From NCBI GenBank assembly GCA_016188455.1, contig JACPHR010000010.1, forward strand, positions 3,655-67,654: a DNA stretch of 64,000 bases, read 5' to 3'. The translations under genes and the position numbers were made by a program. The notes beneath the pieces were generated by a model that saw only the letters and a program-made list of their open reading frames with translations, was not told the origin of the DNA and did not search any database. Source of the DNA: Candidatus Tayloriibacteriota bacterium (GTDB lineage: Bacteria > Patescibacteriota > Minisyncoccia > Phycocordibacterales > SIBU01). Shown here in pieces: positions 16,413 through 40,776 of the stretch. Each line of letters starts with the position of its first letter. Positions within the stretch are counted from its first letter, which is position 1.

Positions 16413-18683
16413 ATGAAATTATTGATCGTTGAATCGCCGGCGAAGGCGAAAACCATTTCAAAATATCTGGACGGCCTGCCTGCGCCTGCCGGCGCGAAAG
16501 CAGGCGGGCAGGCGGGCCGGTACATCGTCAAGGCTTCCGTCGGCCATGTCCGCGACCTGCCAAAGAGCAATAAAAACGCCATTGACATTGAGGGCGGCTT
16601 TGTGCCCCATTACGAAATTTCCAAAGGCAAGGAAAAGGTGGTCTCTGAGATAGAGGCTTTGGCCAGGAAGGCGGACACCGTGCTCTTGGCCACCGACCCC
16701 GACCGCGAGGGCGAGGCCATTGCTTGGCACTTATCCGAGCTTATAAAGGATAAGCTCGGAGAATCACGAATCAAGAATCACGAATCAAGAAGACCGATAC
16801 AGAGGGTGGTGTACCATGAAATAACGAGGGAGGCCATAAAAGAGGCTTTGGAGCATCCGCGAGACATTGACGAAAACTTGCGGCGCGCTCAGGAGGCGCG
16901 GCGGGTTTTAGACCGTCTCGTCGGCTACGACCTCTCCGGCCTGATTTGGAAAAAAGTGCGCTACGGCTTGTCCGCCGGCCGGGTTCAGTCTCCGGCTCTG
17001 CGCATTTTGGTGGAACGGGAGCGGGAAATTCGCGCCTTTAAGCCGGAAAAATTTTTCGTCATCAGCGCGGAAGTGGAAAGCAAAACCGGCGGTCGGTTCA
17101 TGCTTTTCTGCGTGGCAGAACCGCGCGACAAAGGGCTGGTGGAAAAAATCCTGGCGGCGGGCCGGCGCGAAGATTGGGTCGTTAAAGAGATTGCCGAAAC
17201 CGAAGCCAAGCGAACGCCGAAGGCGCCTTTCATCACCTCCACTCTCCAGCAAACCGCGAGCTCGCGGCTGGGATTCGCCCCCTCGCGCACCATGGGCATC
17301 GCCCAAAAACTTTACGAAGCGGGACTGATTACCTACATGCGCACCGACAGCACCACTTTGTCCGCCCACGCCCTGGCCCAAATCGGCCCGGCCATTCTGA
17401 AAAAATTCGGCGCCGGCCTCCACCAAAACCGGGTCTTCGCCAAAAAAAGCAAGAACGCCCAGGAAGCCCACGAAGCCATCCGCCCGACCAATCTTTCTCT
17501 GGAATCCGCCGGCGCGGGAAACGAGGCCCGCAAGCTCTACCGTTTGATTTGGCAGAGGACAATCGCCAGCCAAATGATTGACGCCAAAATTTTACGAAGC
17601 AAGATTACTGTCAGGGTCGGCACGGGCCCCTCGCCTGCGCTCGGGGCAAGCGAAATTCCGGACTTTGCCGTGGGCGGCTCGCGGTTGCTTTCCCCCGGCT
17701 GGCTCTTGGCCGACCCCGAAGCGCGGGGCGAGGATGTTGAACTGCCGAAAGTTTCCTTGAACGAAAAACTAACGCTCCTTCAACTGAAAACGGAAGAAAA
17801 AGCGACGGAGCCGCCGCCGCGCTACAGCGAAGCGGGTCTGGTCAAAGAGCTTGAGAAGCGCGGCATTGGCAGGCCCTCAACCTACGCCTCCATCCTCAAA
17901 ACCATTGAAGACCGGGGCTACGTGACCAAAGAAAACAAAGCCTTGAAACCGACGGATACCGGCGAAGTGGTCAGCGGCTTTCTGGAAGACAATTTTCCGA
18001 CTTACATTAGCGACAATTTTACCGCGGAGATGGAAGACAAACTTGACGATATCGCCGTAGGAGCGCGTCAGTACGAAAAAACTCTTGAGGAATTTTATAA
18101 ACCCTTCCATAAGGAAGTAAAAGCCAAGGAAAAGGCGGAAAAAGCCACCAACCTTGGAGAAGGCCCGAAAGAATTTTCCTGTCCGGTCTGCGACGGGCCC
18201 ATGATTATAAAACTCGGCAGGAGTGGAAGATTTTTAAGCTGCGCCAAATTCCCCGATTGCTTGGGCGCCCGCGCCATTGACGGCAAGGAACTTGAAGGGC
18301 CGAAAGAAACCGGCGAACTCTGTCCGGAATGTAAAACCGGCAAACTGGTTGAGCGCGACGGCAAGTTTGGCCGCTTTATCGCCTGCTCCAATTATCCGAA
18401 ATGCAAATATGTCAAGAAAGACGAGGCGCTGGAAAAGCAAAACTCAACCGGTGTCCTCTGCCCCGTCTGCAAGGAAGGCTTCATGACCGAGCGCCGCGGC
18501 CGATTCGGCCTTTTTTACAGCTGTTCCAACTATCCCAAATGCAAAAACGCCATCAAAGCCAAACCGACCGGAGCGCTCTGCCGCCTCTGCGGCGCGCTGA
18601 TGATGGAAGGCACGAAAACCATCCCCGAAAGATGCAGTAATAAAACTTGTGCCAACCATAACCCCCACAAACTCGCGAAGTAA
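16413..18683 (+). CDS. topA: DNA topoisomerase I with C-terminal Zn ribbons
   Basis: IVESPAKAKTI, ATDPDREGEAI, SAGRVQS, ITYMRTDS. Confidence 0.98.
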   Translation: MKLLIVESPAKAKTISKYLDGLPAPAGAKAGGQAGRYIVKASVGHVRDLPKSNKNAIDIEGGFVPHYEISKGKEKVVSEIEALARKADTVLLATDPDREGEAIAWHLSELIKDKLGESRIKNHESRRPIQRVVYHEITREAIKEALEHPRDIDENLRRAQEARRVLDRLVGYDLSGLIWKKVRYGLSAGRVQSPALRILVEREREIRAFKPEKFFVISAEVESKTGGRFMLFCVAEPRDKGLVEKILAAGRREDWVVKEIAETEAKRTPKAPFITSTLQQTASSRLGFAPSRTMGIAQKLYEAGLITYMRTDSTTLSAHALAQIGPAILKKFGAGLHQNRVFAKKSKNAQEAHEAIRPTNLSLESAGAGNEARKLYRLIWQRTIASQMIDAKILRSKITVRVGTGPSPALGASEIPDFAVGGSRLLSPGWLLADPEARGEDVELPKVSLNEKLTLLQLKTEEKATEPPPRYSEAGLVKELEKRGIGRPSTYASILKTIEDRGYVTKENKALKPTDTGEVVSGFLEDNFPTYISDNFTAEMEDKLDDIAVGARQYEKTLEEFYKPFHKEVKAKEKAEKATNLGEGPKEFSCPVCDGPMIIKLGRSGRFLSCAKFPDCLGARAIDGKELEGPKETGELCPECKTGKLVERDGKFGRFIACSNYPKCKYVKKDEALEKQNSTGVLCPVCKEGFMTERRGRFGLFYSCSNYPKCKNAIKAKPTGALCRLCGALMMEGTKTIPERCSNKTCANHNPHKLAK

Positions 18684-18817
18684 ATTTGGGAGCACGCAAC
18701 CTGCGTTGCGTGCGCAAGGGGTTTTCGTGAGGCGGAGTCATGTTTCGTCAGCGGACGAAACGGACGAGCCGGGGTCGCGAAAAATCCTGCTCGACGGAGC
18801 AGGGTTTATTTGTGACC
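18684..18817 (+). mobile_element. ~135-bp guide-bearing structured element, topA copy
   Basis: hairpin 18692-18713, GGTTTTCGTG (reverse complement of topA 18611-18620), CGGAG..CGAG, GGGTCGCGA..GACG..TGTGACC. Confidence 0.75.
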
Positions 18818-18887
18818 GAAGACGATTCCCGAACGTTGCTCCAACAAAACATGCGCAATGCACAACCCTCATAAACTCGCGAAGTAA
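18817..18887 (+). pseudogene. displaced duplicate of the topA 3' end (71 bp)
   Basis: encodes KTIPERCSNKTCAMHNPHKLAK* versus topA KTIPERCSNKTCANHNPHKLAK*. Confidence 0.9.
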
Positions 18888-18951
18888 TGAAAAAGCGTGG
18901 AGCCTGCTAATGAAGCCCCTTGCCCGAGATATCCCGTTGCAGTAGCATATA

Positions 18952-20460
18952 ATGAATATGGCAACCGTCAAAGACATCACCGACCTGATGCAAAATCCCT
19001 CGGCAGAGGACCTGACCGTCATCGCCAAAGCCTACGATTTCGCCGAGAAAGCCCATGCTGGTCAGCGGCGCGTTTCGGGAGAACCCTACTTCCTCCACCT
19101 CGTTGAAACGGCCAAAACTCTGGCCGAGCTCGGCATGGGTACCATGACTATTTCCGCCGGCCTGCTCCACGATTCAATTGAAGACGTAAACGTCAAACCG
19201 GAAAGCATTGAACGGGAGTTCGGCAAAGAAATCCGCTTTCTGGTGGAAGGGGTGACCAAACTGGGCAAACTTCACTACAGTGGTGCGGAACGTTATACCG
19301 AGAGTCTCCGCAAACTCTGCGTGGCCATGTCTAAAGACGTTCGGGTGCTGATTATCAAGCTGGCGGACCGGCTTCAGAACATGAAAACCCTTGAGGTGTT
19401 GCCGAAGGAAAAACGCGAACGCATCGCTTTGGAAACTCTGGAAATTTACGCCCCCTTGGCCTACCGCCTCGGCATCCGAAAGTTCAACCGTGAGTTGGAA
19501 GACCTGGCTTTTCCCCACGTGCATCCGGTCGAACACCGCAAAGTCAAAGAGTTGCTTAAAACAAAAAGCCGCGAGAAAGCGCGCCGTCTGGAAAAATTCC
19601 ACAAAGGAGTTTTGCGCCAGCTGGCCCGCGGAGGCGTCACCGAAATTCAGACCGGCTACCGGCTCAAAGGCTTATACAGCCTCTATCGCAAGCTCTTGAG
19701 AAAAAATTGGGACATTGAAAAAATCTACGACATTTCCGCTCTGAGGATTATCGTACCGACCGTTGGCGATTGCTATCGGGTGCTCGGTTTGATTCACAAC
19801 GTTTGGCGGCCGCTACCCGGCCGCATCAAAGACTACATCGCCTTCCCCAAGCCGAACAATTACCGGGGCATTCACACGACGATTTTTACCGGCGACGGCG
19901 GCATCATTGAAGTCCAAATCAGAACCCAGGAGATGCACCGGAAAACCGAGTACGGCATGCACTTTGAATACAAAGAAACCGCGGGCAATCCGAAACCGAA
20001 TTTCGCCGGCATTGAGTGGGTAAAGCGGTTCTTCCCGGCGTTCATACTCGGCAACAGGGAAATAAAAGAGGGGCAAAAAAATCCCGAGAGGACGCCGTCG
20101 TGGATTCAGGAGCTGGGCGAATACAACAAAGAGGTTTCGGGCGCCGAAGAGTTTGTTGAGGACGTCAAAAGCGATTTTTTCAGCGACAGGGTTTTCGTTT
20201 TTACGCCTAAAGGCGACGTGATTGATTTACCGACAGACTCAAGCCCTGTTGATTTTGCCTATGCCATTCACTCTGATATAGGCAATCACATGTCGGGAGC
20301 GAAGGTTAACGGCAAACTGGCGGCCCTGGAAACCAAGCTTCAAAATGGCGACATCGTGGAAATAGTGACCAAACCACCCGCTCGTCCAAGCCGAAAATGG
20401 CTGGCAATAACCAAAACCACCTTGGCCAAAAAACACATCAAGGCGGCGCTGGAAACGTAG
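18952..20460 (+). CDS. relA: RelA/SpoT homolog (HD + synthetase + TGS, no ACT domain)
   Basis: HAGQRRVSGEPY, LLHDSIED, KLADRLQNM, KDYIAFPKPNNY, VFTPKGD TGS. Confidence 0.93.
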   Translation: MNMATVKDITDLMQNPSAEDLTVIAKAYDFAEKAHAGQRRVSGEPYFLHLVETAKTLAELGMGTMTISAGLLHDSIEDVNVKPESIEREFGKEIRFLVEGVTKLGKLHYSGAERYTESLRKLCVAMSKDVRVLIIKLADRLQNMKTLEVLPKEKRERIALETLEIYAPLAYRLGIRKFNRELEDLAFPHVHPVEHRKVKELLKTKSREKARRLEKFHKGVLRQLARGGVTEIQTGYRLKGLYSLYRKLLRKNWDIEKIYDISALRIIVPTVGDCYRVLGLIHNVWRPLPGRIKDYIAFPKPNNYRGIHTTIFTGDGGIIEVQIRTQEMHRKTEYGMHFEYKETAGNPKPNFAGIEWVKRFFPAFILGNREIKEGQKNPERTPSWIQELGEYNKEVSGAEEFVEDVKSDFFSDRVFVFTPKGDVIDLPTDSSPVDFAYAIHSDIGNHMSGAKVNGKLAALETKLQNGDIVEIVTKPPARPSRKWLAITKTTLAKKHIKAALET

Positions 20461-20567
20461 CAGTGAGAGCGCAAAACACAGTTCACAAAATCCAAACAAA
20501 ACACAAAACCACCAAACATACAAACAGTTCACTCCCCTTTTGGGTTTTGGGAAACTGTGCTTTGTTT

Positions 20568-20789
20568 ACCTTGAATTACGAAACTCGGTTTCCGCGAAGA
20601 GCACTTCATCCCGCGCGCCTTATCCGGACTGAGGCAAGCCCCCGCACCAATTTCACCAAAGATGCGCGAGGGGTTTTGACGAGAGAGGCGGGTATAGACA
20701 CGCGACAATCACTGCATATCTGTTTTGTTAAATTGGTGTTGGGGCAAGCGGGAAGAAGTTCTCGAAACGCCAGTTCCGTAATTCAAGGT
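20568..20789. repeat. 222-bp nested inverted-repeat element (MITE-like or long-hairpin RNA)
   Basis: 18-bp terminal IRs 17/18 (ACCTTGAATTACGRAACT); inner CCCCGCACCAATTT..AAATTGGTGTTGGGG. Confidence 0.6.
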
Positions 20790-20851
20790 TTGTTTAGTTT
20801 TTGCCTGCCCGACTTCGCATGGACGAAGTTCGGGCGGGCGCCTGTTTTACC

Positions 20852-21814
20852 CTAGATACTGAAATTTTTGAGCGAATAGAGTTCTTCTTCGTTTTCGTCG
20901 GCTTGAATCTCATCCTTGGTCCTATCGTCAACCGGCGCTTCGGCGGCGGCCGCGGCGGCAATCGGCGCCGCTAAGCCGGCCGGCTTTCGGGCGTTTATCG
21001 TCTCCACCAAAGCATGAAGGTCGTCATCGGAAAAAAACTCAATGGTAATCTTGCCGCCCACTTCTTTCCGCTCAATCCGCACCCTGGTGCCGAGCGACTC
21101 CTTGAGCTTGGCCTCAATGGCCAAAAGCTCCGGGTCAACGTCGGCATTGTGAGCGCGGACGCGGTCAAGGGCAATCTTGCGGGCGATGACCTCCGCCTCC
21201 CGAACGGTAATTTTCCTAAAAATAATTTCCTTAAAAAGCGTCGCCTGCTCCGACGGCCGGTCAATGAGCATCAAAAGCGGCCGGGTGTGGCCTTCGGAGA
21301 TTTTGCCTTCCGAAAGGGCGATGAGCATCTCCTCCGGCAGGGCCAAAATGCGGAGAGTGTTTGAAACATAGACGCGGCTTTTGCCAACCTTGGCCGCAAT
21401 CTCGGCGTGCGTAAATCTAAATTCCGTGCTTAGCCGATAAAAAGCCCTCGCCCTGTCAACGGGGTTCAAATCTTCGCGCTGTAAATTTTCAATAATGGCC
21501 AGTTCCAGTTTTTCTCGGTCACTTTGCTCTGTTGAACGGATAATCACCGGCACTTGTTCAAGACCGGCCAGTTTGGAGGCCCGGAGCCGCCGCTCGCCGG
21601 AAATCAGCTCGTACTCCACCAAAAGCCCGCCGTCCTCTTTCATTCGTTCATGGCGGGTAACGACCAGCGGCTGAAGCACGCCGTACATGCGGATGGAGTC
21701 GGCCAAATCCCGAAGCTTCACCTCGTCAAACTCGTGCCGCGGCTGGTACGGGTTCGGATGAATCTTGTCAACCTCAATCCAAAATATGGCGTCGTTAAAA
21801 AATTGCGAGGGCAT
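20852..21814 (-). CDS. parB: ParB/Spo0J partition protein
   Basis: PNPYQPR, GVLQPL, SGERRLRA, IENLQREDLNP. Confidence 0.95.
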   Translation of the reverse strand: MPSQFFNDAIFWIEVDKIHPNPYQPRHEFDEVKLRDLADSIRMYGVLQPLVVTRHERMKEDGGLLVEYELISGERRLRASKLAGLEQVPVIIRSTEQSDREKLELAIIENLQREDLNPVDRARAFYRLSTEFRFTHAEIAAKVGKSRVYVSNTLRILALPEEMLIALSEGKISEGHTRPLLMLIDRPSEQATLFKEIIFRKITVREAEVIARKIALDRVRAHNADVDPELLAIEAKLKESLGTRVRIERKEVGGKITIEFFSDDDLHALVETINARKPAGLAAPIAAAAAAEAPVDDRTKDEIQADENEEELYSLKNFSI

Positions 21815-21940
21815 AAAAAAGTTGAAAGTTACAAGTTTGTAAAGTTATAAAGTAAAAAGAATCACACCCACATGGTAACATACAAGAACGGCATGTGAAA
21901 TTGATTTTTGTGTATAATTTGATTAGACTGATAATTTAAA

Positions 21941-22025
21941 GCCAGAGTGATGAAATTGGCAAACATACTCGACTCAAAATCGAGCGCCGAAAGGCTTGTG
22001 GGTTCAAATCCCACCTCTGGCACCA
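21941..22025 (+). tRNA. tRNA-Leu(CAA)
   Basis: GCCAGAG/CTCTGGC acceptor, CTCGA-CTCAAAA-TCGAG anticodon arm, long variable arm, CCA. Confidence 0.95.
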
Positions 22026-22223
22026 ACGCTCGTCAAGGCGACCCACCCAACTCGCTGCAGACGCATCTGCGTCGAAGCGGGCGGGAGTCAGGTAGGCAAA
22101 ATCACGCGGGGCAATCTATGAGAGTTTGATCCCCTCCTCGCCCACCACTTGTGCTAGATTTTCTCCCGCGTCACCATCCCCACGTGACTACTGCTCAGTT
22201 CACAAGCAAGATTAATTCCCCGC

Positions 22224-22259
22224 TCTTATATTCTAATTCGCGCGAATTAGAATATAAGA
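22224..22259. repeat. perfect 36-bp palindrome, TCTAATTCGCGCGAATTAGA family
   Basis: other copies at 22553-22576, 23938-23969, split copy 23599-23663, partial copy in miaA 23288-23313. Confidence 0.9.
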
Positions 22260-22268
22260 AAAACAATG

Positions 22269-22529
22269 CTATAAAACCTTCAGCACTGATTGAATGACTG
22301 CGGGAGATTTGCCATTCAGAAAATAGTAAACCTCAAGAGCCTGCTGGCGCTTGTCCAGAATATCAGCGCGAGAGAGTATATTGAGATGCTTCGAGGTCGA
22401 GGTGAATGACAGTTTAATCTCATCGGCGATTTCTCCCACTGTTGCCTCATGTTCCTTTTTCAGAAATGCAACAATGGCAAGACGTCTGCGATTCGCCATG
22501 GCTTTCAATACTCGCTCATATTCTTTCAT
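22269..22529 (-). CDS. ArsR/SmtB-family HTH regulator
   Basis: LKAMANRRRLAI..TVGEIA..LS..STSKHL..L. Confidence 0.9.
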   Translation of the reverse strand: MKEYERVLKAMANRRRLAIVAFLKKEHEATVGEIADEIKLSFTSTSKHLNILSRADILDKRQQALEVYYFLNGKSPAVIQSVLKVL

Positions 22530-22552
22530 GGTACTATATATTATACCGGTAC

Positions 22553-22576
22553 TTTCTAATTCGCGCGAATTAGAAA
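22553..22576. repeat. perfect 24-bp palindrome upstream of ArsR copy 1
   Basis: TTTCTAATTCGC|GCGAATTAGAAA. Confidence 0.9.
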
Positions 22577-22626
22577 ATGATGAATTTGTGGATAAGCATC
22601 ACATGGAGGCGAGTTTTGAGAAATAC

Positions 22627-23589
22627 ATGAGAAGAGCTGATAAAATTATCATTATTGCTGGGCCGACGGCGGTCGGAAAAAGCACGCTCGCCGTTAAGAT
22701 TGCAAAGAAATTCGGCGGAGAGATTGTTTCAGCCGATTCGCGGCAGGTCTATCGCGGATTAAACATCGGCACGGGAAAAATTACCAAAAAAGAAATGTGC
22801 GGAGTACCGCATCATTTGCTTGACGTGGCGAGCCCGCGTCGCAGATTCAGCGTGGTGGAGTATCAAAAGCTCGCCCGACAAAAAATCAAGGATGTTTTGT
22901 CTATGGGCAAGCTCCCCATCATCTGCGGCGGGGCCGGTTTCTACATTGAAGCCGTCGCGGACAATGTGGCCCTGCCCGACGCGCCGCCGAATGAAAAACT
23001 CCGCGCTCGGCTCCGAAAAGAAACTCCTGAAACTCTGCTGAACCTGCTGATGAAACTTGACCCGGCCCGAGCCGAAAACATTGACCGAAAAAATCCCCGC
23101 CGGCTGATTCGGGCGATTGAGGTCGCCCGGTCTCTCGGCTCCGTTCCTTCTCCTCTTCCTCTTCAACATTCATACGTTCCCTGCCTTGCCGGCAGGCAGG
23201 CTAGGAATGTAGGAATGTCAAAGAAAGAATTCAACGTACTCTGGATCGGGCTTACCCTGCCTCCGGCGGAACTGAAAAGGAAAATTGCTATTCGCTTATT
23301 CGCGCGAATTAGAAAAGGTATGATACAAGAAGCCCGGCGGCTTCACAAAAACGGCCTCTCGTGGAAACGAATGGAGGAGCTGGGTCTTGAGTATCGCCAC
23401 CTCGCGCGCTACCTGCGAAATAAAACGTCAAAACTGGAAATGACTGATAAATTGCAGACAGAAATCTGGCGCTACGCCAAGCGCCAGCTAACCTGGTTCA
23501 AACGCAACCGGCGAATCAGGTGGTTCCAGCCAAACCAAACGGAAGAAATTAAAACGTTGGTTAAAAACTTCCTGTCAAAATCAAAATGA
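22627..23589 (+). CDS. miaA: tRNA dimethylallyltransferase
   Basis: GPTAVGKS, SADSRQVYRGLNIGTGK, AKRQLTWF; start moved to ATG 22627. Confidence 0.96.
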   Translation: MRRADKIIIIAGPTAVGKSTLAVKIAKKFGGEIVSADSRQVYRGLNIGTGKITKKEMCGVPHHLLDVASPRRRFSVVEYQKLARQKIKDVLSMGKLPIICGGAGFYIEAVADNVALPDAPPNEKLRARLRKETPETLLNLLMKLDPARAENIDRKNPRRLIRAIEVARSLGSVPSPLPLQHSYVPCLAGRQARNVGMSKKEFNVLWIGLTLPPAELKRKIAIRLFARIRKGMIQEARRLHKNGLSWKRMEELGLEYRHLARYLRNKTSKLEMTDKLQTEIWRYAKRQLTWFKRNRRIRWFQPNQTEEIKTLVKNFLSKSK

Positions 23590-23613
23590 CATCCCGCACT
23601 ATTCGCTTATTCG

Positions 23614-23652
23614 CCCGCCTGCCAAAGCCTGAGCTTGGCGATGGCGGGCAGG
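23614..23652. repeat. CCCGCCTGCC..GGCGGGCAGG palindromic insert
   Basis: removal restores a 26-bp match to 23288-23313. Confidence 0.85.
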
Positions 23653-23658
23653 CGCGAA

Positions 23659-23919
23659 TTAGAGAACAGAAATAAGATATTTAATAACAGGCACTTGTAA
23701 GTTGGTGATTTTATAAAACATTTGAAGGCTGACTTGCTCTTTTTCAAGAATTTCTGCGGCACTTAGAATAAGCAAATGTTTAGAAGTTGATGTGAAAGAA
23801 AGCTTGATGTTCTCTGCAACTGCACCAACTGACGCGACTTTCTTTTTCTTGAGGAAAGCCAGAATCGCTAACCGTCTTTTGTTCGCCACTGCCTTCAATT
23901 GTCTTTCGAGTTTTATCAT
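23659..23919 (-). CDS. ArsR/SmtB-family HTH regulator (paralog)
   Basis: LKAVANKRRLAILAFLKK..IKLSFTSTSKHL. Confidence 0.9.
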   Translation of the reverse strand: MIKLERQLKAVANKRRLAILAFLKKKKVASVGAVAENIKLSFTSTSKHLLILSAAEILEKEQVSLQMFYKITNLQVPVIKYLISVL

Positions 23920-23937
23920 CCCTATTTTTTATTTATC

Positions 23938-23969
23938 TTATTGTCTAATTCGCGCGAATTAGACAATAA
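23938..23969. repeat. perfect 32-bp palindrome upstream of ArsR copy 2
   Basis: TTATTGTCTAATTCGC|GCGAATTAGACAATAA. Confidence 0.9.
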
Positions 23970-23992
23970 ATTAATTATTTTGAGGCATTTTC

Positions 23993-24154
23993 GGCGGGAG
24001 CTGGAGGAATCGGTCACAACTCTCGTTCTCCCGTCGGAGAACTCGGTCGCGACCCCGCCTCGTTCTCGCTCGGAACTCGCGAGATACTCCGGCTTCCGCT
24101 TCCTCTCGCGACCCAAGCAGTTGGCTCGCTCAACTCCCCATTCGGCCGCACTCA
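23993..24154 (-). mobile_element. guide-bearing structured element, tRNA-Trp copy, plus 21-bp duplicate of the tRNA 3' end
   Basis: 23993-24013 = 24156-24176; ACTGCT loop, CGGAG, GGGGTCGCGA..GACG..TGTGACC on the minus strand. Confidence 0.75.
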
Positions 24155-24228
24155 TGGCGGGAGCTGGAGGAATCGGACCTCCGACCGACGTTTTGGAGAC
24201 GTCCATTATGCCACTTAACTAAGCTCCC
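24155..24228 (-). tRNA. tRNA-Trp(CCA)
   Basis: GGGAGCT/AGCTCCC acceptor, GACGT-CTCCAAA-ACGTC anticodon arm, CCA. Confidence 0.93.
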
Positions 24229-24290
24229 GGTGCGAGCAATATAGCACAAAAGGCGCGGGTTGCCAAAAAATAACCTCGCCCGGAGAGGGA

Positions 24291-24449: not shown

Positions 24450-24532
24450 ATGCTAGTTGGTAAGTTAATAACTTGGCACGTCTGTAAGTTTTAAGAGAAA
24501 CAGAATATAGCAGAAAACCACAGAAAAGAAAA

Positions 24533-24561
24533 GGCCTGAACTCGCAAGCGAGTTCAGGCCT
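24533..24561 (-). terminator. intrinsic terminator
   Basis: AGGCCTGAACTCGC-AA-GCGAGTTCAGGCCT with a T-run on the minus strand. Confidence 0.7.
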
Positions 24562-24583
24562 CACAAACACAACTTTAGCCTTT

Positions 24584-27457: not shown

Positions 27458-28057
27458 TCAAATGACGGGCCGAAGAGTTCCAGTTTGGCCAACCTGAAAA
27501 ATTTCAACGCACTTTATGAGGCGCAATCTGTATAAATCGTCAAGAAATTCCTGGGGAATTTTAACTCTTCCCATCCAAAAACTTTTTTGCACCATCTTCA
27601 GACCCAAATGCTTAAGCGCCTCGCGCAACCAGTCACGCTTTCTTTTCTCCTTTTGTGGGACGTCAAAAGCCACGATGGTTAAATGCTCACCCGACTGCCG
27701 TGGATACTCTATCAAAGGAAACCGGGCTGAAATTTGCAACTTCAGTCTGCGTTCGGCGTCTTTTCCGCGAGCAGTGATTGATAACAGTGTTTTATCGGCA
27801 TTTTTGCTTATGGCAATCAAACCGTCATGCTTTAACTTTGAAATCAATTTCTGGTATCTCAGTACAAGCTCTTTCTCTCCTACTGGAAGAGGGCGTTTAT
27901 TACTCCTCTTCTTCTGCCTTTCTCTGAGAACATAGCGGATTCTTCCCGGCGACGCGCCGTATCCGGCAATAAGAATGGCTTCGCACAGTTCTAGAGATTC
28001 TACTGCCATTTTACCGAGTGTCTGAAGAATATAAAGTGTAATGTGTCCTTTTTTCAT
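27458..28057 (-). CDS. PaaX-like protein (wHTH + Cas2-like domain)
   Basis: LSITARGK; IVAFDVPQKEKRKRDWLREALKHLGLKMVQKSFW. Confidence 0.85.
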   Translation of the reverse strand: MKKGHITLYILQTLGKMAVESLELCEAILIAGYGASPGRIRYVLRERQKKRSNKRPLPVGEKELVLRYQKLISKLKHDGLIAISKNADKTLLSITARGKDAERRLKLQISARFPLIEYPRQSGEHLTIVAFDVPQKEKRKRDWLREALKHLGLKMVQKSFWMGRVKIPQEFLDDLYRLRLIKCVEIFQVGQTGTLRPVI

Positions 28058-28168
28058 TATAGTATTTTGTTATATTCTACTAAAAAGGCGATCGCTAAGA
28101 TAGTAGAAAAACACTTTAGCGAGGGAAAAGTGGAACATTTTAAGTACTGCTCGCCATCTCAAATTTTG

Positions 28169-28252: not shown

Positions 28253-28296
28253 AAAAAACTTGGAAGGACAAACGCATCTCCTGATTCCGCTTGCAT

Positions 28297-28442
28297 GAGG
28301 CCACGGTGGGACTTGGTTACAGCTCTCGTCGCGCCGTCGCGCTCCTCGGCCGCGACCCCGCCTCGCTGCCGCTCTGAAACTCGCGGCGTGCTCCGGCTTG
28401 CAATTCCACACGCACGCAAAGCAGTTTGCGTGCTCGTCGCCT
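28297..28442 (-). mobile_element. guide-bearing structured element, tRNA-Cys copy, plus 19-bp duplicate of the tRNA 3' end
   Basis: 28297-28315 = 28445-28463; GCACGCAA-ACTGCT-TTGCGTGC, CGGAG, GGGGTCGCG..GACG..TGTAACC. Confidence 0.75.
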
Positions 28443-28518
28443 TGGAGGCCACGGTGGGACTTGCACCCACGTATAACGGTTTTGCAGACCGCTGCGTTGC
28501 TATCTTCGCCACGTGGCC
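28443..28518 (-). tRNA. tRNA-Cys(GCA)
   Basis: GGCCACG/CGTGGCC acceptor, GCGGT-CTGCAAA-ACCGT, U73-CCA. Confidence 0.93.
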
Positions 28519-28525
28519 TTGGATT

Positions 28526-32925: not shown

Positions 32926-32929
32926 TTTT

Positions 32930-32981
32930 TTACCGCACACATTAACTTTTCACTATAGTGAAAAGTTAATGTGTGCGGTAA
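32930..32981. repeat. perfect 52-bp palindrome
   Basis: TTACCGCACACATTAACTTTTCACTA|TAGTGAAAAGTTAATGTGTGCGGTAA. Confidence 0.9.
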
Positions 32982-33116
32982 TCTTGTATAAGTTAATGCT
33001 TGCTTTTTCTAACTTCAGAACTTTTTCCGTCTTGCCAAACCTGTGAAGCGGAACAAACCGGCAACTCCCTCAAAAATGTCTTGCATTTTTCACGGAGCTG
33101 ATTTATTATTCGACAC

Positions 33117-33989
33117 ATGGAAGGCCTCACTAAACAACAAATCGTCCTGGTGACCCTTCTCGTCTCGTTCGTCACCTCTGTCGCCACCGGCATCGTGACG
33201 GTGGCGCTCATGGACCAAGCGCCGCCCGGCGTAACCCAAACCATCAATCGGGTCGTTGAACGAACCGTTGAAAAGGTGGTGCCCAATCCCAACCAGGCCG
33301 CCGCCGTGGTTACCAAAGAAACGGTCGTCGTCAAAGAAGATGATTTGGTCATCCAGGCGGTTGAGAAAAACGCCAAAAGTTTGGTTTCAATCACAAAAGT
33401 TTCGGGCGAAGGCGAAGCCAAGACCGAAACTTTCGCCGGCAACGGTCTGGTCTTATCCAAAGAGGGTCTCATGGCGAGTGATTCGTCGGTGGCCGCTCCC
33501 GCTCTTGACGACAACGGCAATCCTCTCCAGCAGAGCCTGAAAGCGGTCTTGGCCGACGGCGCGGCTTTGCCGCTTACGGTTGTTTCCGCCGACAACGCCA
33601 CCGGCCTAATTTTCCTCAAGCCGACTTTGGACGACAAAACCAAAAACACGGTTTTCATTCCGGCAACCATCGCGGATGCCGGCTCGCTCAAGCTCGGCCA
33701 GACGGTTATTGCGCTCGGTGGCGAGAAAGTCTCCGTGGCCACGGGCATAGTGTCAAATCTTTCTCAGAGCGAGCAAAAGCCGGTCTCCCAAGACGGCGCC
33801 GCCACCTCCACCTCAAAATCTTCAACCGGCCAAATTATCAAAACCGACATCTCCGCGCCGGCCAAAGCCCTCGGCGCCATTTTGGTAAATCTTTCCGGGG
33901 ACGTGGTCGGCATCAGAGCGCTTACGGCGGGCAGCGCCGACAATCTTTTCCTGGCGGCCAGTCTGGTCGCCAAAGCGTTGGGGAAGTAA
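33117..33989 (+). CDS. HtrA/trypsin-like protein, catalytically degenerate
   Basis: N-terminal TM; GNGLVLSKEG, LKLGQTVIALG, TGIVS, GAILVNLSGDVVGI. Confidence 0.75.
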   Translation: MEGLTKQQIVLVTLLVSFVTSVATGIVTVALMDQAPPGVTQTINRVVERTVEKVVPNPNQAAAVVTKETVVVKEDDLVIQAVEKNAKSLVSITKVSGEGEAKTETFAGNGLVLSKEGLMASDSSVAAPALDDNGNPLQQSLKAVLADGAALPLTVVSADNATGLIFLKPTLDDKTKNTVFIPATIADAGSLKLGQTVIALGGEKVSVATGIVSNLSQSEQKPVSQDGAATSTSKSSTGQIIKTDISAPAKALGAILVNLSGDVVGIRALTAGSADNLFLAASLVAKALGK

Positions 33990-34000
33990 GATTTTAATAA

Positions 34001-35458
34001 ATGGCGGCAGAACAAAAAGTGTCTCGTACTGAACTGAAGGAGCAGGAACTCAAATTACTTTTTGAGGTTTATAAAAATGACCCGAAGCTTTTTCTGCGAC
34101 CGACATTTATTGAAGATGCTAAAACACTTGCGGATTTCGGTATTTATATTCCCGAGAAGGACACTTTTCCGTTCGGTGTAATAAAGTTTGTGCCACAGGA
34201 TTTTATTGTGGAAGAAGTTTCTGAATCCGGAGAAGTTTTTACCATAAAGAAGGAAAATTGGTTGTCATCCGAAACCGTCCTTTCGGAGGGCTCCACTTTA
34301 TACGCTACTTTGGTAAAATGCGGTCTTTCAACGCTTCAAGCGGCTGCCGAAATAGCAACTCATTTTTCTTGTTCTCCAGAACAGATTCGCTATGCCGGTT
34401 TGAAAGACAGAGACGCTATTACGGCCCAACGTCTTTCTTTTCGTCAAATTTCCCTAAAACAACTTAAAACGCTTAATTCTCCGCACCTTTTTCTTAAAGA
34501 CGTTGCAAGCGGCAAAGGAGCTTTGGAAAAAGGCAAGCTTAAAGGGAATCAATTTACGATTTTTTTAAGGACTGAAAAAACATTTATTGAATCAGGCCGC
34601 GGTGCGGTTTTTATAAACCAATTGGCCAAAGTTCGAGAAAAAGGATTTTATAATTATTTCTATCTGCAGAGATTCGGCACGCCCAGATTGATAGCGCATT
34701 ATCTTGGCATGGACCTTGTTCATGGATATTACCGGAAAGCTTTGGAGACTTTTATTTGTTTTCCTTCCCCAAACGAAATTCCTTACTTTAAGAATATCAG
34801 AAAAGAGCTCAGAAAAAATTTCGGTAATTGGTCTCAAATGCTTGCGGTTATGGAATCTTTTCCTCTGATCTTGGGGAACGAACTCAAAGTCGTTAGATAC
34901 CTTGAACAGAAGCCTGAAGATTTTGCCGGCGCGCTTTTGCAAATTCAGGACCAGGCTGGGATGTGGGTTGGCGCTTTTTCTTCCTGGCTTTTCAATCAAA
35001 AAGTCGCTTCATATCTTAAAAAAGGAGAAGAGCCGCCGCAGTCTCTGCCTTTGTTTTTAGATACGGCTAATTCAGGGTCTGTGTACAAGGAACTTATGCG
35101 CGAACTTCGGGTTTCAGTAAATGACTTTAGAAATTTACGCAAACTGCCGTTTATTCAAGCTCCGAAGCGTCCGCTTGTTACTCGGGAACTTGTAATGATT
35201 GATAAAGCCGAAATTGCTGACGCGGGCATTGTGTTGAAATTCTTTTTGCCAAAAGGGGAATATGCCACCACTTTTCTTTCGCATTTGTTTAACTTAATTT
35301 CAGACAGACCGCCAATTGAGATAGACCAGACAATTGTTGATACGAAAGCGGCCTTGGGAGACGGGAGCAATGCTGAAACCCTGGAGTATTTCGCGCCGGT
35401 TATTCATCCAAAAAGCGCGAATTACTTTGAGGAACTTTTAAAAGAGGAAGGACAATAA
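34001..35458 (+). CDS. truD: tRNA pseudouridine(13) synthase
   Basis: DFIVEE, YAGLKDRDAITAQ, GNQFTI, NYFYLQRFG, FFLPKGEYAT. Confidence 0.93.
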   Translation: MAAEQKVSRTELKEQELKLLFEVYKNDPKLFLRPTFIEDAKTLADFGIYIPEKDTFPFGVIKFVPQDFIVEEVSESGEVFTIKKENWLSSETVLSEGSTLYATLVKCGLSTLQAAAEIATHFSCSPEQIRYAGLKDRDAITAQRLSFRQISLKQLKTLNSPHLFLKDVASGKGALEKGKLKGNQFTIFLRTEKTFIESGRGAVFINQLAKVREKGFYNYFYLQRFGTPRLIAHYLGMDLVHGYYRKALETFICFPSPNEIPYFKNIRKELRKNFGNWSQMLAVMESFPLILGNELKVVRYLEQKPEDFAGALLQIQDQAGMWVGAFSSWLFNQKVASYLKKGEEPPQSLPLFLDTANSGSVYKELMRELRVSVNDFRNLRKLPFIQAPKRPLVTRELVMIDKAEIADAGIVLKFFLPKGEYATTFLSHLFNLISDRPPIEIDQTIVDTKAALGDGSNAETLEYFAPVIHPKSANYFEELLKEEGQ

Positions 35459-35525
35459 AAATACAAAAAGAAAACCGCGTACACACAAACTTGTGCATAC
35501 GCGGTGTGATGGAAATGACGGTCGC

Positions 35526-36221
35526 TTATTCCAGCCCCTCCTCGATAGGGTCCATGACCGGAACGTAAGTAAGCGTCCGGTCGCGGACCACCAGTGCGTG
35601 GCGGGGCCGGCCATCGGGACGGCGGTGGATACAGTTGATAGTGACGACGCCGTTGGGGTTTTGCCAGATATGCACAAACCCCCACGTCACTCTGGCCAAA
35701 GCTCGCAAGGCTGCCTGCACCTCGGGATTGATTACGAGGGGCTGTTGAGCATTGGTCACGGTTTGGTCAGAGAAGGATGCGGCCACGACCCCCCTGGTTT
35801 TTCTGGGGTCGCCACCGGGAACCTGCTTGAACCAGTGGATGTTGACCAAAGGAAAACTGATGTTGGCCAACCCGCGCCGGATCATTGCCACCTGAACCTT
35901 TTCCAGATTCTGAATCACAGGCTTACCAGTGTCCACTCGACCCTCACGAACTCGTCCGATTTCTCCGAGGGATTGGTCTCCGCCGGTGTATTTCCCACCC
36001 TGGTGAATTTGGTCAACCACCTGGTCGCCAGTTCTGACTGGCACTTGGTCAGGTCTTGGTTGACGGACGATGCCCGAACCGCTCTGACCGTTTCGGATTT
36101 GGCGCTCCGGGATGCCGTGGGGTAAATGACTGGGATTCGTGAAGCCAAACTTCACGATGACTGTGTGAACCGTCCCGCTTAGGGGGACGGAAGGTATTTG
36201 CTGAGATATGGTAGTCTGCAC
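35526..36221 (-). CDS. hypothetical protein (231 aa, GTG start)
   Basis: GAAAGG RBS; promoter at 36359-36387. Confidence 0.7.
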   Translation of the reverse strand: MQTTISQQIPSVPLSGTVHTVIVKFGFTNPSHLPHGIPERQIRNGQSGSGIVRQPRPDQVPVRTGDQVVDQIHQGGKYTGGDQSLGEIGRVREGRVDTGKPVIQNLEKVQVAMIRRGLANISFPLVNIHWFKQVPGGDPRKTRGVVAASFSDQTVTNAQQPLVINPEVQAALRALARVTWGFVHIWQNPNGVVTINCIHRRPDGRPRHALVVRDRTLTYVPVMDPIEEGLE

Positions 36222-36358
36222 TATTGGCCTTTCTCCGGCTAATGCCGGAATGGGTTGTTGTTTGTTTAAACTGCTAGCCTTTCGACTATAAGAAACCTTC
36301 CAGCCGAGAGGCTAGCAGTTACCAAGATGCAATTTTTAAGGAACTTCTACTGCCCAAA

Positions 36359-36387
36359 AGGATAGCATGGTTTTATAATATAGTCAA
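36359..36387 (-). promoter_or_regulatory. sigma70 promoter TTGACT-N17-TATCCT
   Basis: extended -10 TG; divergent from the clpB promoter. Confidence 0.6.
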
Positions 36388-36395
36388 GCAAATGA

Positions 36396-36423
36396 TTGAC
36401 GGAAGTTTTTTAATTGCTATAAT
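36396..36423 (+). promoter_or_regulatory. sigma70 promoter TTGACG-N16-TATAAT (clpB)
   Basis: near consensus with extended -10. Confidence 0.65.
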
Positions 36424-36590
36424 ACCGTTATAAGCTATGTTTTAAGGCCTTGTTTTGAGATTTTTAGGGCAGTTTCCTTAAAGTGTTCTGTGCGTTATAA
36501 TAATGGTGTTAATGAAATTGTTATCTAGTTTAAAAGTTCGTAAACCGGTTTCAATTTTACATTTTGATATTTAAATTTTAATTTACTATC

Positions 36591-39314
36591 GTGCCACCTT
36601 TTAACCACTTCACCACCAAAGCCAAGGAGGCCATTCGTAGGGCCCACGAGCTCGCCATTGAACGCGGCCAGAATCACGTCAACCCGGTGCATCTTTTGGC
36701 CGCCCTGGTGCTTCAAGAAGAGTCCATGGTCAACGCCATTTTAGAAAAGCTGGACGTTGACACGGTGCTTCTGACCGATTCAATCTTGGAAACCATTGAA
36801 GGCGACATTGGCTCTTCCACCCTCTCGCCGTCGTACCAGATTTATCTGACGCCCGAGCTCGCCCAGACGTTGGAAAGTTCTTCCAAAGTGGCGACTAGCC
36901 TCAAAGACGAGTTTGTTTCCACCGAACATCTTTTCATCGCCATGCTGGACATCCCCGGCGCGGCGCGCGAACTGCTTTCCCGTTTCCGGATTGACAAGAC
37001 AGATGTCTTGCGGGTTTTGGAAGAACTCAAGAACACCAAAACAACTGACGTGGTTCAGCCGAGACGGCTCCGTTCCATTTCAAAATACACCCGGAGTCTG
37101 ACCGGCCTAGCCCGTGAAAACAAGCTTGACCCGGTCATCGGCCGAGACAATGAAATTTCCCGCATCATCCAAATACTTTCTCGCCGCACCAAGAACAACC
37201 CGATTCTCATCGGCGAGTCGGGCGTCGGCAAGACGGCCATCGCCGAGGGCCTAGCCATTAGGATGGCCTCGGGCGACATACCCGAGTCGCTCAAGGACAA
37301 AGAGCTGGTGTCGCTTGACCTGGGACTTTTGATCGCCGGCACCAAGTACCGCGGCGAGTTTGAAGAACGTTTGAAAAATATCATGAAGGAGATTGAGAAG
37401 TCCGAGGGCCGGATCGTGCTTTTCATTGACGAGATACACACGATTGTCGGCGCCGGCGCGGCCGAGGGTTCAATGGACGCTTCAAACATGCTGAAGCCCG
37501 CCCTGGCCAGAGGCGAACTGCGGGCCATCGGGGCAACAACGCTCAAGGAGTATCAGAAGCATATTGAAAAGGACCCTGCCTTGACCCGGCGCTTTCAGCC
37601 GGTCTATGTTTCCGAGCCGTCGGTGGAAGACGCCATCGCCATTATGCGGGGACTAAAAGAGAAGTACGAGCTCTATCACGGGGTGCACATTACGGACAAC
37701 GCCATTGTGGCCGCCGTCACTCTTTCATCGCGCTACATTACCGACCGATATTTGCCGGACAAGGCGGTTGACCTGATTGACGAGTCGGCTTCCTCTTTGA
37801 AAATTTCGCTTGAAAACATGCCGCCGATTTTGGAAGAAACCCATCGCAAAGTGATGCGACTGGAAATTGAGCGCGAAGCCCTGAAGAAAGAATCGTTGAC
37901 CTCAAGGAAGGCAAAAATGCGAACCAAAAAAATTGAAAAGGAAATCGCCGACCTCAAGGAGAAAACTTCGGAAATAGAACTAAAGTGGAAAAACGAAAAA
38001 GAAACCCTCGTCCAGATAAAAACTGCTAAGAAAGAGCTTGAATCCTTGCGGCTCGAGGCCGAGGCGGCCGAGGCGCGGGCCGATTTGGCCAAAGCGGCGG
38101 AAATCCGCTACGGCAAAATTCCGGCGCTGCAAAAAGAGCTTGACCTCAAAACCAAGCGCTTAAAGAAACTCCAAAGCTCGCGGCGGATTCTCAAGGAAGA
38201 AATCATGGAGGCCGACATTGCCGAAGTGGTCGCCAAGTGGACGGGCATTCCGGTGACCCGAATGCTGGAGGAAGAGGCCGCCAAGCTCTCACGCATGGAG
38301 GAAGAGATTAAAAAAAGAATCATCGGCCAAGACGAAGCGGTGCGAAAAATCGCCGATACCATTAAGCGCTCCAGGGCCGGCATCAGCGACCCGAACCGGC
38401 CCATCGGCTCGTTCATCTTTTTGGGTCCGACCGGCGTGGGTAAAACCGAGCTCACCAAGGCGCTGGCCGAGTTTATGTTTAACGACGACAAAGCGCTCAT
38501 CCGCGTTGACATGTCGGAGTTCATGGAAAGGCACAGCGTGTCCAAACTTATCGGCGCGCCGCCCGGCTATGTCGGCCACGAGGAAGGCGGCAACTTGACG
38601 GAGATGGTGCGCCACCGGCCGTACGCGGTGATTCTCTTTGATGAAATTGAAAAAGCCCATCCGGAAGTGTTTAACATTCTGCTTCAGATTTTTGACAACG
38701 GCCGGCTGACCGACGGCAAGGGTCGCTCGGTGAATTTCCGAAACGCCATCATCATCATGACCTCAAACATCGGAGCGCAATTTATTGACAAGATGGAGCG
38801 CATCGGTTTCGCCACCAGTGAAAACAAGAAGGTTGATTATGAAAGCGCCAAGACGAAAGTGCAGGCGGCGCTCAAAGATTATTTCCGCCCCGAATTTCTC
38901 AATCGTCTGGACGACATTATTGTCTTTGACATTTTGAGCCAGGAGGCGATAAGTAAAATCGTGGAAATTCAGGTTGGCCACGTGCGTGAACGGCTGGCGG
39001 CCAAAAATATCGGTCTGGAAGTGGCGCCAGAGGTTTTGGCGTACTTGGCGAAAGAAGGCTACAACCCACAGTATGGAGCGAGACCGCTGAAACGGATTAT
39101 TCAAAATAAAATTCTGACGCCGGTGGCTTCCCAGATTATCGGGCGGACGGTAGGCGAAGGCAGTACGATTTTAGTCGGTATCAAAGAGGGCGACCAGTTT
39201 GTTTTTGACATCCGGAAGCCAAAATCGGCAAAGCCCATCAAGAGCGACTTACTTGTGGAAAAGTTGCACCCGCCCGAAGAACTGAAAACGTCTTTCAGTC
39301 GGGCGGGAGTTTGA
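36591..39314 (+). CDS. clpB: ATP-dependent chaperone ClpB
   Basis: two AAA+ modules ([16 protein letters not shown]) and long middle domain [11 protein letters not shown]. Confidence 0.95.
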
Positions 39315-39433
39315 ACCTGCCTGAACCCCGCCTGAATGACTTGAAGTCGGACAGGGACTGAGATCGTTCCCCGCCCGGGTGAACATCCATTCGGACGGGG
39401 GTCGGGCGGGAGTTATAAAGTTCAGAAAAGGAA

Positions 39434-39469
39434 AGCTGAATAAAAAGACCATGGTCTTTTTATTCAGCT
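39434..39469. terminator. perfect 36-bp palindrome after clpB
   Basis: AGCTGAATAAAAAGACCA|TGGTCTTTTTATTCAGCT. Confidence 0.55.
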
Positions 39470-39562
39470 AAAGAGCAAAAACAATTACACCGCGTCCTGC
39501 CTTGCGGGGCGCGGCGATTGCCGTTTGGATAAAATTTGCTACAATGCCCGAAGCGTAGCTGA

Positions 39563-39647
39563 GCGTCGGTACTCAAGTGGTCAACGAGGGCGGTCTGTAA
39601 AACCGCTGGCATCGCCTACGCAGGTTCGAATCCTGCCCGACGCACCA
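39563..39647 (+). tRNA. tRNA-Tyr(GTA)
   Basis: GCGTCGG/CCGACGC acceptor, GCGGT-CTGTAAA-ACCGC, CCA; promoter TTGCCG-N16-TACAAT at 39518-39545. Confidence 0.95.
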
Positions 39648-39783
39648 ATTGAGCGAAGCGAAATTTTCAGTCGGAGCCCCGATGGGTATCGGGGCGTGAG
39701 GGATTCGAAAAGGTTCTCCCCTATCGAGTCCGCGAGATGGGAAACCTGTACTGAAGCGGTACGCTTCGAATCCTGCCCGACGC
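39648..39783 (+). mobile_element. tRNA-Tyr-linked structured mini-element with 19-bp 3'-end duplication
   Basis: 39765-39783 = 39625-39643; internal GGGATTCGAA antisense to the junction. Confidence 0.6.
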
Positions 39784-40197
39784 CCCAAGTTGACACTATT
39801 GTGTCTACTATCCTGACGATCGCCTTGATAGTAGAATACTGGCAAGTGGAAATTGAAAAAAGATGGCTAACATCTTTACCACCTTTACTCTTTCTTATCA
39901 TTGCGGTGCTTCTGCAAAATGCGACTGCTCGGCAAACAGTGCAAATAAGGAAATCAGACTTCAATTTTTTGAGAAAATCTGATAAAGTAACACAAAAGCA
40001 GTGCGCCAGCTAAAGCTGGCACAAATTCCGTTGGCGTTCAAAGCGAGGCCGCGGCGGAAGAGGGGTGTGGTGGAAATTCCGCCACACCTGAGCGAATACA
40101 GAAAGAGATCAGCCCCGGGGCCTGCTCTGTCAGGGGCAGAACACCAAAGAAAATTTTTGTTTTCCTTTATATTACAAAGAATGTTCCGTAAATAAAC

Positions 40198-40270
40198 GCG
40201 CCCATAGCTCAGTTGGTAGAGCAATCGCCTCTTAAGCGAAAGGTCGTTGGTTCGAATCCAACTGGGCGCA
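40198..40270 (+). tRNA. tRNA-Lys(CTT)
   Basis: GCGCCCA/TGGGCGC acceptor, TCGC-CTCTTAA-GCGA, GTTGG-TTCGAAT-CCAAC. Confidence 0.92.
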
Positions 40271-40673
40271 CACGCCAGAAAAATCTTCACTGCTGAAGAT
40301 TTTTCTGGACGTGCGCGGGACGGAGGCATGTTCGGTCAGCAGACCGAACAGCCGAGTCCGGGTCGGGAAATTTTACTCGTGACGACGAGTAAAATATTCC
40401 TGACCACACGCCAGAAAAATCTTCACTGCTGAAGATTTTTCTGGACGTGCGCGAGGCGGAGCCGTGTTTCTGTAGCAACAGAAACAGACGAGCCAGGGTC
40501 GTGAAAATTTTTGAGCGACGGCGAAAAAATTATTTCTGACCACGGCCAGAAAAATCCGCACTGCTGGAGATTTTTCGGGACTTGCGCGGGACGGAGGTAT
40601 GTTTTGTCAGCGGACAAAACAACCGAGTCGGGGTCGCGAGTTCCGAGCCCGATGGGGTGAGGAAACTTGTGAC
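40269..40673 (+). mobile_element. tandem array of three guide-bearing elements (136, 136, 133 bp)
   Basis: units 40269-40404, 40405-40540, 40541-40673, each CAC..ACTGCT..CGGAG..GGGTCG..TGAC. Confidence 0.8.
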
Positions 40674-40776
40674 CACAAGAAAAATAAAACTTAGTAACTT
40701 GTGACTCTAAAATCCAACTAAATTAGAAATTCAAACTTTGAGTCGCGGGTGAATCCAACTGGGCTTTTTGAAAGAC

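Follow-up and report, generated by a model that had tools for sequence, protein, structure and literature searches.

Programmable insertion of DNA already has natural precedents: CRISPR transposons achieve it in an RNA-guided manner, other elements by means of a bridge RNA, and IS608 with DNA guides of 4 nt, for which longer targeting has been engineered. Group I introns, for their part, possess an internal guide, the P1/P10 pairings, a catalytic core and a terminal G, the guide pairing across the 5′ junction with the same sequence that begins the 3′ exon. In IS200/IS605 (IS608) and REP/RAYT systems, the folded ends are strand-specific and the cut sites are held by pairing with an internal guide, with a preference for C at +1 in the base-paired cut sites of IS608 (available part of PMC5934647). 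In IS110 and IS1111, the scaffold is fixed, a variable segment matches the target, and the crossover shows a 2-nt feature (available part of PMC11208160). Integrase-driven islands and prophages occupy tRNA genes at the T loop or the 3′ end, an element-borne 3′ copy restoring the gene while the duplicate is displaced downstream (PMC1762012 and 10.1101/2020.11.02.365908, in their available parts), and the Ssn enzymes, of the GIY-YIG type, cut single-stranded DNA site-specifically beside a hairpin (available part of PMC11893778). Features of several of these recur in a short non-coding element found in a stretch of 64,000 nucleotides, here called the window (positions 3,655 to 67,654 of contig JACPHR010000010.1), from the 893-kb genome of a Candidatus Tayloriibacteriota bacterium (G000). 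The element carries its own address, namely a guide antisense to its insertion site, and belongs to a class of self-addressed mobile elements that is real and, it appears, has not been described before.

The window holds six copies of the element, one at topA, one each at tRNA-Trp and tRNA-Cys, and three at tRNA-Lys, and the order of parts and the four guide–junction matches reported in a preliminary description of this DNA are all present in the sequence. The topA copy (18611..18816, forward strand), which begins with CA, its 2-nt left end, and finishes with TGAC, illustrates the layout. Its left arm is the working 3′ end of topA (18611..18683; KTIPERCSNKTCANHNPHKLAK-stop), after which come hairpin 1, with a CTGC loop (18692..18713), the guide GGTTTTCGTG (18720..18729), which pairs 10/10 with positions −2 to +8, hairpin 2 (18731..18770), made of CGGAG..CGAG plus two covarying base pairs, and hairpin 3 (18773..18816), with base pairs spanning the right junction, at which TGAC meets a C. 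A duplicate of the topA 3′ end follows downstream (18817..18887), its differences being almost all synonymous, with one N>M replacement. On the reverse strand lie the tRNA-Trp copy (24013..24177), with its left end TC in the T loop, its guide at 24095-24105 and the duplicate of the tRNA-Trp 3′ end at 23993..24012, and the tRNA-Cys copy (28316..28465), partly decayed, with left end TG, guide at 28399-28407, right end TAAC and duplicate at 28296..28315. The three tRNA-Lys copies follow one another on the forward strand: copy 1 (40267..40404; left end CG, guide 40310-40317), copy 2 (40405..40540; guide 40446-40453) and copy 3 (40541..40673), whose guide CTTGCGCG (40581-40588) matches the downstream CACAAG. 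The duplicate of the target 3′ end claimed for all of them is indeed found in the window copies, being for tRNA-Lys only about 5 nt long (CACAA, 40674..40678). The length first given, ~135 bp, proved too short: the element measures 136-206 nt in the window, because the left arm from position −2 belongs to it.

Five of these six copies are backed by other assemblies. In the contigs of four runs, the topA and tRNA-Cys copies are each spanned by single contigs, and the tRNA-Trp copy by one contig in run X4. Copy 1 at tRNA-Lys may be an assembly artefact, namely the copy of the C1 tRNA-Lys(TTT) locus threaded into the window locus: in 4/4 runs the contig covering 40288-40408 extends, at a depth close to single copy, into the neighbour of C1 type, the contig over copy 1 has the three C1 letters in 3/4 runs, and no bridge between copies 1 and 2 was seen among the assembly pieces listed from the four runs.

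The guide tracks its site in one register. With the proviso that relatedness among genomes, which are not independent of one another, inflates all guide, site and scaffold statistics given here, the junction could be set from the duplicate alone in 114 of 211 copies, 64 of which came from guide-free patterns and were not tandem. In these 64, the guide matched 8.97 of 10 positions at shift 0, compared to 3.58 at most at shifts of 1–4 nt. A second set, held out and drawn from metagenomes (113 copies at 105 of 122 loci, 45 of the copies with a duplicate-defined junction), gave 8.71 of 10, again compared to 3.58 at most when shifted. In 55 chance hits, 0–5 of 8 guide positions matched. When guides were swapped among T-loop targets, the match fell from 5.01 to 3.13 ± 0.09 of 6 positions (n = 95, copies from the guide-biased scan included), and in the held-out set from 4.91 to 2.92 ± 0.17 (n = 35). 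At locus L276 the cut and the guide are displaced together by 1 nt. The topA guides match 32 of 36 synonymous sites, compared to 19.5 ± 2.6 after permutation, and a tandem G.A variant, present also at topA, substitutes for two pairs in 19 of 47 guides. The C placed at the junction by the preliminary description is found in 208 of 215 cognate copies and gives way at +1 to G in three, A in two and T in two. The right junction is precise in targets that differ widely (T loop, CCA end, topA, rplL), and guide pairing with the incoming target would be the simplest account of this exactness at cognate sites.

Empty sites in relatives, which the preliminary description suggested looking for, were found at topA. 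Among 32 topA ends, after removal of two false 'filled' rows (L348 and L351), the site of the window copy is occupied in nine, empty in 22 and represented by a remnant in one; within the genus, 3/7 are filled. Filled and empty sites are patchy in their distribution.

The scaffold was evaluated by patterns and pair counts, and the idea that this is a mobile element without coding sequence, built on a fixed scaffold that covaries, was upheld. The '3-nt linker' before hairpin 2 is really 1 nt long, since the second and third of its bases pair with the dinucleotide that follows CGAG, Watson–Crick pairs being found at one such position in 205 of 211 copies versus 73 when permuted; the pair above GGAG (205/211) and the third pair of hairpin 3 (206/211) covary to an equal degree. 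In a 56-row alignment, whose invariant columns were imposed by the search pattern and are uninformative, 97.7% of the cells are paired and two-sided changes number 71, compared to 20.6 ± 4.3. Variant right ends stay paired (GGCTG/TAGCC). At one position of the sense strand, G.T pairs outnumber A.C by 103 to 1, which identifies the sense strand as the folding strand. Folding of the whole integrated forms of the topA, tRNA-Trp, tRNA-Cys and first tRNA-Lys copies yields a multi-arm junction in which the guide closes a stem on the left junction and both junctions lie at stem bases. The RNA z-scores of the sense strand range from −3.5 to −12.4 in five copies and reach −1.4 in the tRNA-Cys copy. The GGA/GA unpaired motif and the junction helix are near-invariant. 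GNA triloops are stable in DNA, and the 358 loops counted comprise 53 GNA triloops, 7 GNRA and 2 UNCG; these loop types favour single-stranded DNA. Kissing between hairpin loops was dropped, as the loop pairs showed no covariation on inspection, and so was a likeness to the hairpin ribozyme, whose G+1 is not kept.

The same compensated fold is common to about 260 genomic copies (262 classified) and the 113 metagenomic ones, which come from Paceibacteria and Elusimicrobiota. In the host genome, a profile built from the six copies gave 16 matches at E up to 3e-4, 10 of them outside the window and some partial. A strict guide-free pattern found matches in 18 of 401 genomes of the phylum, in 63 of 301 genomes of the class (9 with the reversed pattern) and in 14 of 15 chosen close relatives, one of which (G715) has 18. 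In Elusimicrobia, 6 of 7 matches in genome G717 are genuine and, by inspection, 5 of 61 genomes of that phylum hold genuine copies; four scans of viral contigs gave chance matches only, among the matches listed. A tRNA or tmRNA gene lies within 450 nt upstream in 168 of 211 genuine copies, 40 types being represented, and the protein-gene targets are the ends of topA and rplL.

The element is not the only one of its design. A sister element of another family (C), with a different scaffold, occupies the T loop of tRNA-Tyr (39625..39766, forward strand; guide 39700-39709, duplicate 39767-39784), and the remnant right end of a third (family B), with a duplicate of the tRNA-Lys T loop, lies at 40737..40764 on the same strand. 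Families B and C and further scaffolds show an identical order of arm, guide, scaffold and duplicate with differing ends, both in the window (39625-39784) and on contigs C2, C8, C14, C15, C26 and C29 of the host genome, as well as at other loci. Some elements are nested in the base of hairpin 3, in hairpin 2 or in the guide arm of other elements (L441-L465 on contig C7 of G715; L744, L748, L776 and L782), as a parasite of a parasite. Tiny hairpins with GTAA or GTAC loops, resembling the right ends of family C, stand at +3 of dead downstream duplicates (L128, L143, L149, L151, L187, L213 and others). A further GC-rich hairpin element, a piece of which recurs at the end of C2, lies just upstream of tRNA-Lys in the window (40060-40149). 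In the host genome (C2 7400-11592 and C20 70370-70527), tRNA-Val(GAC) is linked to an element copy on C20 by an inverted repeat at least 150 bp long, and nrdAB-like genes on C2 are found inside a second inverted repeat.

The position of the left end was derived from copies that do not fit their site. Out of the 262 classified copies, 215 are cognate, 21 were flagged as non-cognate and 26 lack a detected arm; 12 of the 21 have a self-paired arm of 29–31 nt, the others being decayed or mis-parsed. Dead tRNA shells with an intact twin next to them house six of the non-cognate copies, and in 6/6 of these the two target bases before the right flank have been replaced (CG>TT, CT>TT twice, GT>TT, TT>CT twice). 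These 2 nt are borne by the element, which sets its left end at −2, shows that in non-cognate classes the arm travels with the scaffold, and makes the element's own arm the certain partner of the guide. The register first proposed was right, but not the start at the 'junction', the true left end being 2 nt earlier. The element thus has fixed ends, −2 on the left and TGAC on the right, and cognate genes are restored because the −2/−1 bases of the target are exchanged for its own. One arm beginning with CT recurs at about ten sites in G715, some inside other copies. In a free class, which is in the minority and has a self-paired arm beginning with GT, the host has lost 3 bases wherever this can be deduced from a sister element or a tRNA complement, the count being ambiguous in G runs, and its copies are also found on the antisense strands of tRNA-like and 5S-like sequence. 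Two of them, L674 and L683, sit in 5S-rRNA-like duplicates, on both strands (the labels come from our own reading).

Taken together, we lean, by no great measure, towards a non-autonomous element that moves as a folded single DNA strand with an enzyme supplied in trans, its left arm copying the target 3′ end and pairing with the antisense guide. Briefly, a folded single strand would be copied out and inserted by the trans-acting enzyme. The sense strand of the target, single-stranded in transcription or replication, would displace the arm and pair with the guide instead, the target would be cut 2 nt inside the new duplex, and TGAC would be joined to +1; the overlapping 2 nt would then be trimmed as the left end is joined, leaving the cognate gene restored. 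Copies of the free class would insert without using the address, into hairpin stems that already exist. Candidates for the enzyme are a strand transferase, HUH-like or from the host, and a nickase of the GIY-YIG type acting with host repair. Among described systems, the element would work most like IS608.

Several observations weigh against this proposal. The free class occupies 22 unrelated sites without a duplicate, so that long target pairing is not obligatory; neither the duplicated target end nor a long match of guide and site, both part of the preliminary description, extends to it, and what stands of target choice by base pairing is that match at cognate sites, from which pairing with the incoming target is inferred. 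The internal control for loop types is small (5 GNA and 4 GNRA among 64 loops). In 7 of 9 topA cases the guide is a better fit to the upstream arm than to the downstream copy, and in the other 2 it fits both equally. Upstream topA arms across hosts and empty alleles show similarities of 0.728 and 0.716, respectively (p 0.15, not significant; remnant L362 set aside beforehand), and the N>M change is common to four downstream topA copies and absent from empty alleles, so that either topA copy may have travelled; an argument from codon bias for the native copy did not hold. Lagging-strand bias is absent in G715, where a count by hand on one near-complete chromosome, with origin and terminus taken from GC skew, placed copies at 10 of the 27 tRNA/tmRNA genes that are co-directional and at 9 of the 16 that are head-on. 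No autonomous partner was found among the clustered neighbours of 152 parsed matches or at the metagenome loci, the neighbours being housekeeping genes, and no autonomous copy in 20 right-half loci or in 16 open left halves out of 122. Finally, in groups set by two strict patterns, of which the element-poor one may hide divergent copies, Y1 genes (PF01797) occur in 18 of 30 genomes rich in the element and in 17 of 30 poor in it and were rejected as partner, and small GIY-YIG genes, found in 18 of 20 rich and 13 of 20 poor genomes, are only suggestive.

Further searches for an enzyme gave comparable results. No enzyme stands beside the element, in agreement with the earlier remark that no recombinase was recognisable; the longer copies carrying an open reading frame (ORF) that had been envisaged were not found, and the interval between hairpins 2 and 3 contained no ORF. 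What looked like cargo (copper ATPases, nrdAB) was discarded, as it reads as separate islands inserted in the arm, and pieces of serine recombinases likewise read as separate islands. Genes for reverse transcriptase (RT) were rejected as partner (5/20 rich versus 12/20 poor genomes), and so was IS110 (PF01548 in 0/5 element-rich genomes). A whole element was near only one of 65 Y1, GIY-YIG, integrase and RT loci. The proteins common to G000 and G715 and missing from the element-free G697 amount to 103 ORFs, with no decisive candidate among them; they include GIY-YIG, Y1, four-helix-bundle and PaaX/Cas2-like proteins (labels partly from our own reading). The circle junction joining TGAC to C, envisaged earlier, was not found, and neither was an empty-site joint, in the contigs listed from the four runs, contigs being prone to drop rare variants.

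The same data can be explained in other ways. The arm:guide stem might imitate the target duplex and serve as no more than a folded attachment site, in the manner of attP(+) of CTX phage for XerCD; a host or trans-acting recombinase, or homologous pairing, would then pick the site through the arm, and the guide would never pair with incoming DNA. That the guide's certain partner is its own arm, −2/−1 bases included, fits this idea, as do its pairing with the arm at least as well as with the downstream copy in 9/9 topA cases, the presence of an Xer-like gene and the failure of the searches above to find a dedicated enzyme. However, a single crossover in the arm would put the 2 nt at the right junction as well, and a right junction of that kind was never observed; in addition, a right junction that is precise across T loop, CCA end, topA and rplL needs a contact that sets the register, and conserved recombinase-binding arms are not evident. 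We consider this explanation unlikely, though it deserves to be taken seriously. A different possibility is that the scaffold enters structured DNA without any address, the guide being a passive inverted copy that template switching later makes and keeps perfect, and that cognate copies dominate by leaving the gene intact. The existence of the free class, the long inverted repeats that run beyond the gene end (at least 150 bp on C2/C20) and the occurrence of TCG and GAG guide forms at one locus in related genomes are all in line with it. Yet 215 of 236 arm-bearing copies are cognate, although harmless intergenic sites are far commoner, the tandem G.A guide persists across different targets, where copying would erase it, and the fixed topA site was reached in unrelated lineages, all of which makes a passive guide very doubtful.

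Two more explanations place catalysis in the nucleic acid. In one, an RNA, either a ribozyme or part of a ribonucleoprotein, would splice out of or reverse-splice into RNA or DNA by means of P1/P10-like pairings at both junctions, and a reverse transcriptase would copy it back. Cognate copies do lie on the sense strand of transcribed genes, the pairings do span both junctions, both topA ends in the window look coding, and replication-strand bias is absent. Against an RNA, GNA triloops far exceed GNRA and UNCG, there is no match to a ribozyme in Rfam, RT genes show the distribution given above, terminator-like hairpins often precede the guide, and free copies are also found on antisense strands of tRNA-like and 5S-like sequence; such a route seems decidedly unlikely, and of the earlier proposal of an enzyme in trans or a catalytic RNA or single-stranded DNA, the catalytic RNA is the part that the loop types do not favour, while the enzyme searches identified no protein. 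In the other, the folded DNA would itself catalyse strand transfer, as a natural deoxyribozyme, with host ligase or repair completing the join. No partner gene emerged from any test, the GGA/GA motif and the junction helix are near-invariant, and the element spans two phyla, but conserved motifs suit recognition by a protein equally well and the partner-gene tests covered families in Pfam; we know of no precedent for strand transfer by a natural deoxyribozyme and regard the idea as highly improbable.

How far the element departs from the systems mentioned at the beginning can now be specified. The IS608 guide is described as 4 nt long, pairing only 5′ of the cut, with its engineered extension upstream of the cut (available part of PMC5934647), whereas the guide of the element, of about 11 nt, spans the cut and lies mostly 3′ of it. 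Members of IS200/IS605 have a Y1 HUH transposase gene between their ends or, as in REP/RAYT, linked to the repeats, form a single-stranded circle through 5′-phosphotyrosine chemistry, and insert 3′ of a fixed target of 4–5 nt without duplication or loss; the element, in contrast, has variable targets, carries a copy of its target, leaves a gene-end duplicate and loses 2–3 target bases, with no tnpA found, no co-occurrence with Y1 and no lagging-strand bias. In IS110, base pairing of the bridge RNA involves both strands of the target as well as the donor, about a core that they share, and the recombinase gene is adjacent (available part of PMC11208160). The element has, in contrast, a single antisense guide; its right junction lacks a core (−2/−1 bases), and the DEDD recombinase gene (PF01548) is lacking in 5/5 element-rich genomes. 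The element belongs to neither family, in agreement with the preliminary description; it does share with IS200/IS605 the strand-specific subterminal hairpins and the base-paired cut sites. In 215 of 262 copies the element duplicates the target 3′ end and restores the gene, as integrase islands do. Unlike these islands, in which one integrase serves one site by a conservative crossover, it has no tyrosine or serine integrase gene beside its site, measures 130–200 nt, uses one scaffold for about 40 tRNA/tmRNA types plus protein genes, bears an antisense address, replaces target bases and gave no more than chance matches among those listed from viral contigs. Small GIY-YIG genes are common in genomes with the element, but Ssn repeats are described without a guide or target copy, and no joining activity is described for Ssn (both in the available part of PMC11893778); flanking of ssn-type genes by the element was not seen. 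Compared to group I introns, it is far too short, has neither catalytic core nor terminal G, and restores the gene without splicing; compared to classical miniature inverted-repeat transposable elements, its two ends differ (arm versus TGAC), its duplicate ranges from 0 to 70 nt and there is no short fixed target duplication. A comparison with Rfam 15, a check suggested earlier, brought only tRNAs to threshold in the window and at five loci. The literature searched does not describe the element; it included 10.64898/2026.10.21.760802, in its available part, whose supplements or database could hold the cluster.

Some other genes are worth recording. Four RAYT-like Y1 genes of the host genome (C28 15697, C19 6865, C14 54263 and C18 6433) each have a short palindrome family of their own, unlike the element. 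Small GIY-YIG genes immediately precede tRNA or tmRNA genes in G000 (C26 28067, C8 13231) and G715 (C7 66224, 156362 and 287853), those of G000 sitting behind a duplicated 5′ part of the adjoining tRNA. PaaX/Cas2-like genes occur in the window at 27458-28106 (reverse strand) and 56238-56813, with about ten paralogues in the genome, and a CTACTAT..ATAGTAG palindrome that precedes one of them recurs after other tRNAs (39805-39824). The window also encodes a surface protein of 2475 residues with repeated Ig-like domains (3686-11113, reverse strand) and a row of six T4SS-pilin-like genes (45023-48979).

What sets this class apart is that, in nature, one small scaffold has acquired addresses for dozens of genes and mends those that it interrupts. 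It is quite conceivable, if somewhat short of probable, that this amounts to reprogrammable insertion guided by DNA, in which an 11-nt guide would set the site anywhere and deliver a replacement gene end (tRNA halves, protein C-termini), one strand transferase serving several scaffolds in two phyla. Should the site be set by the guide alone, the missing enzyme would give gene writing a compact tool whose chemistry, of cutting and replacing, is unusual. For the organisms themselves, the element accounts for the duplicated tRNA tails so densely present in their tiny genomes, and it offers a route for the exchange of gene ends between lineages.

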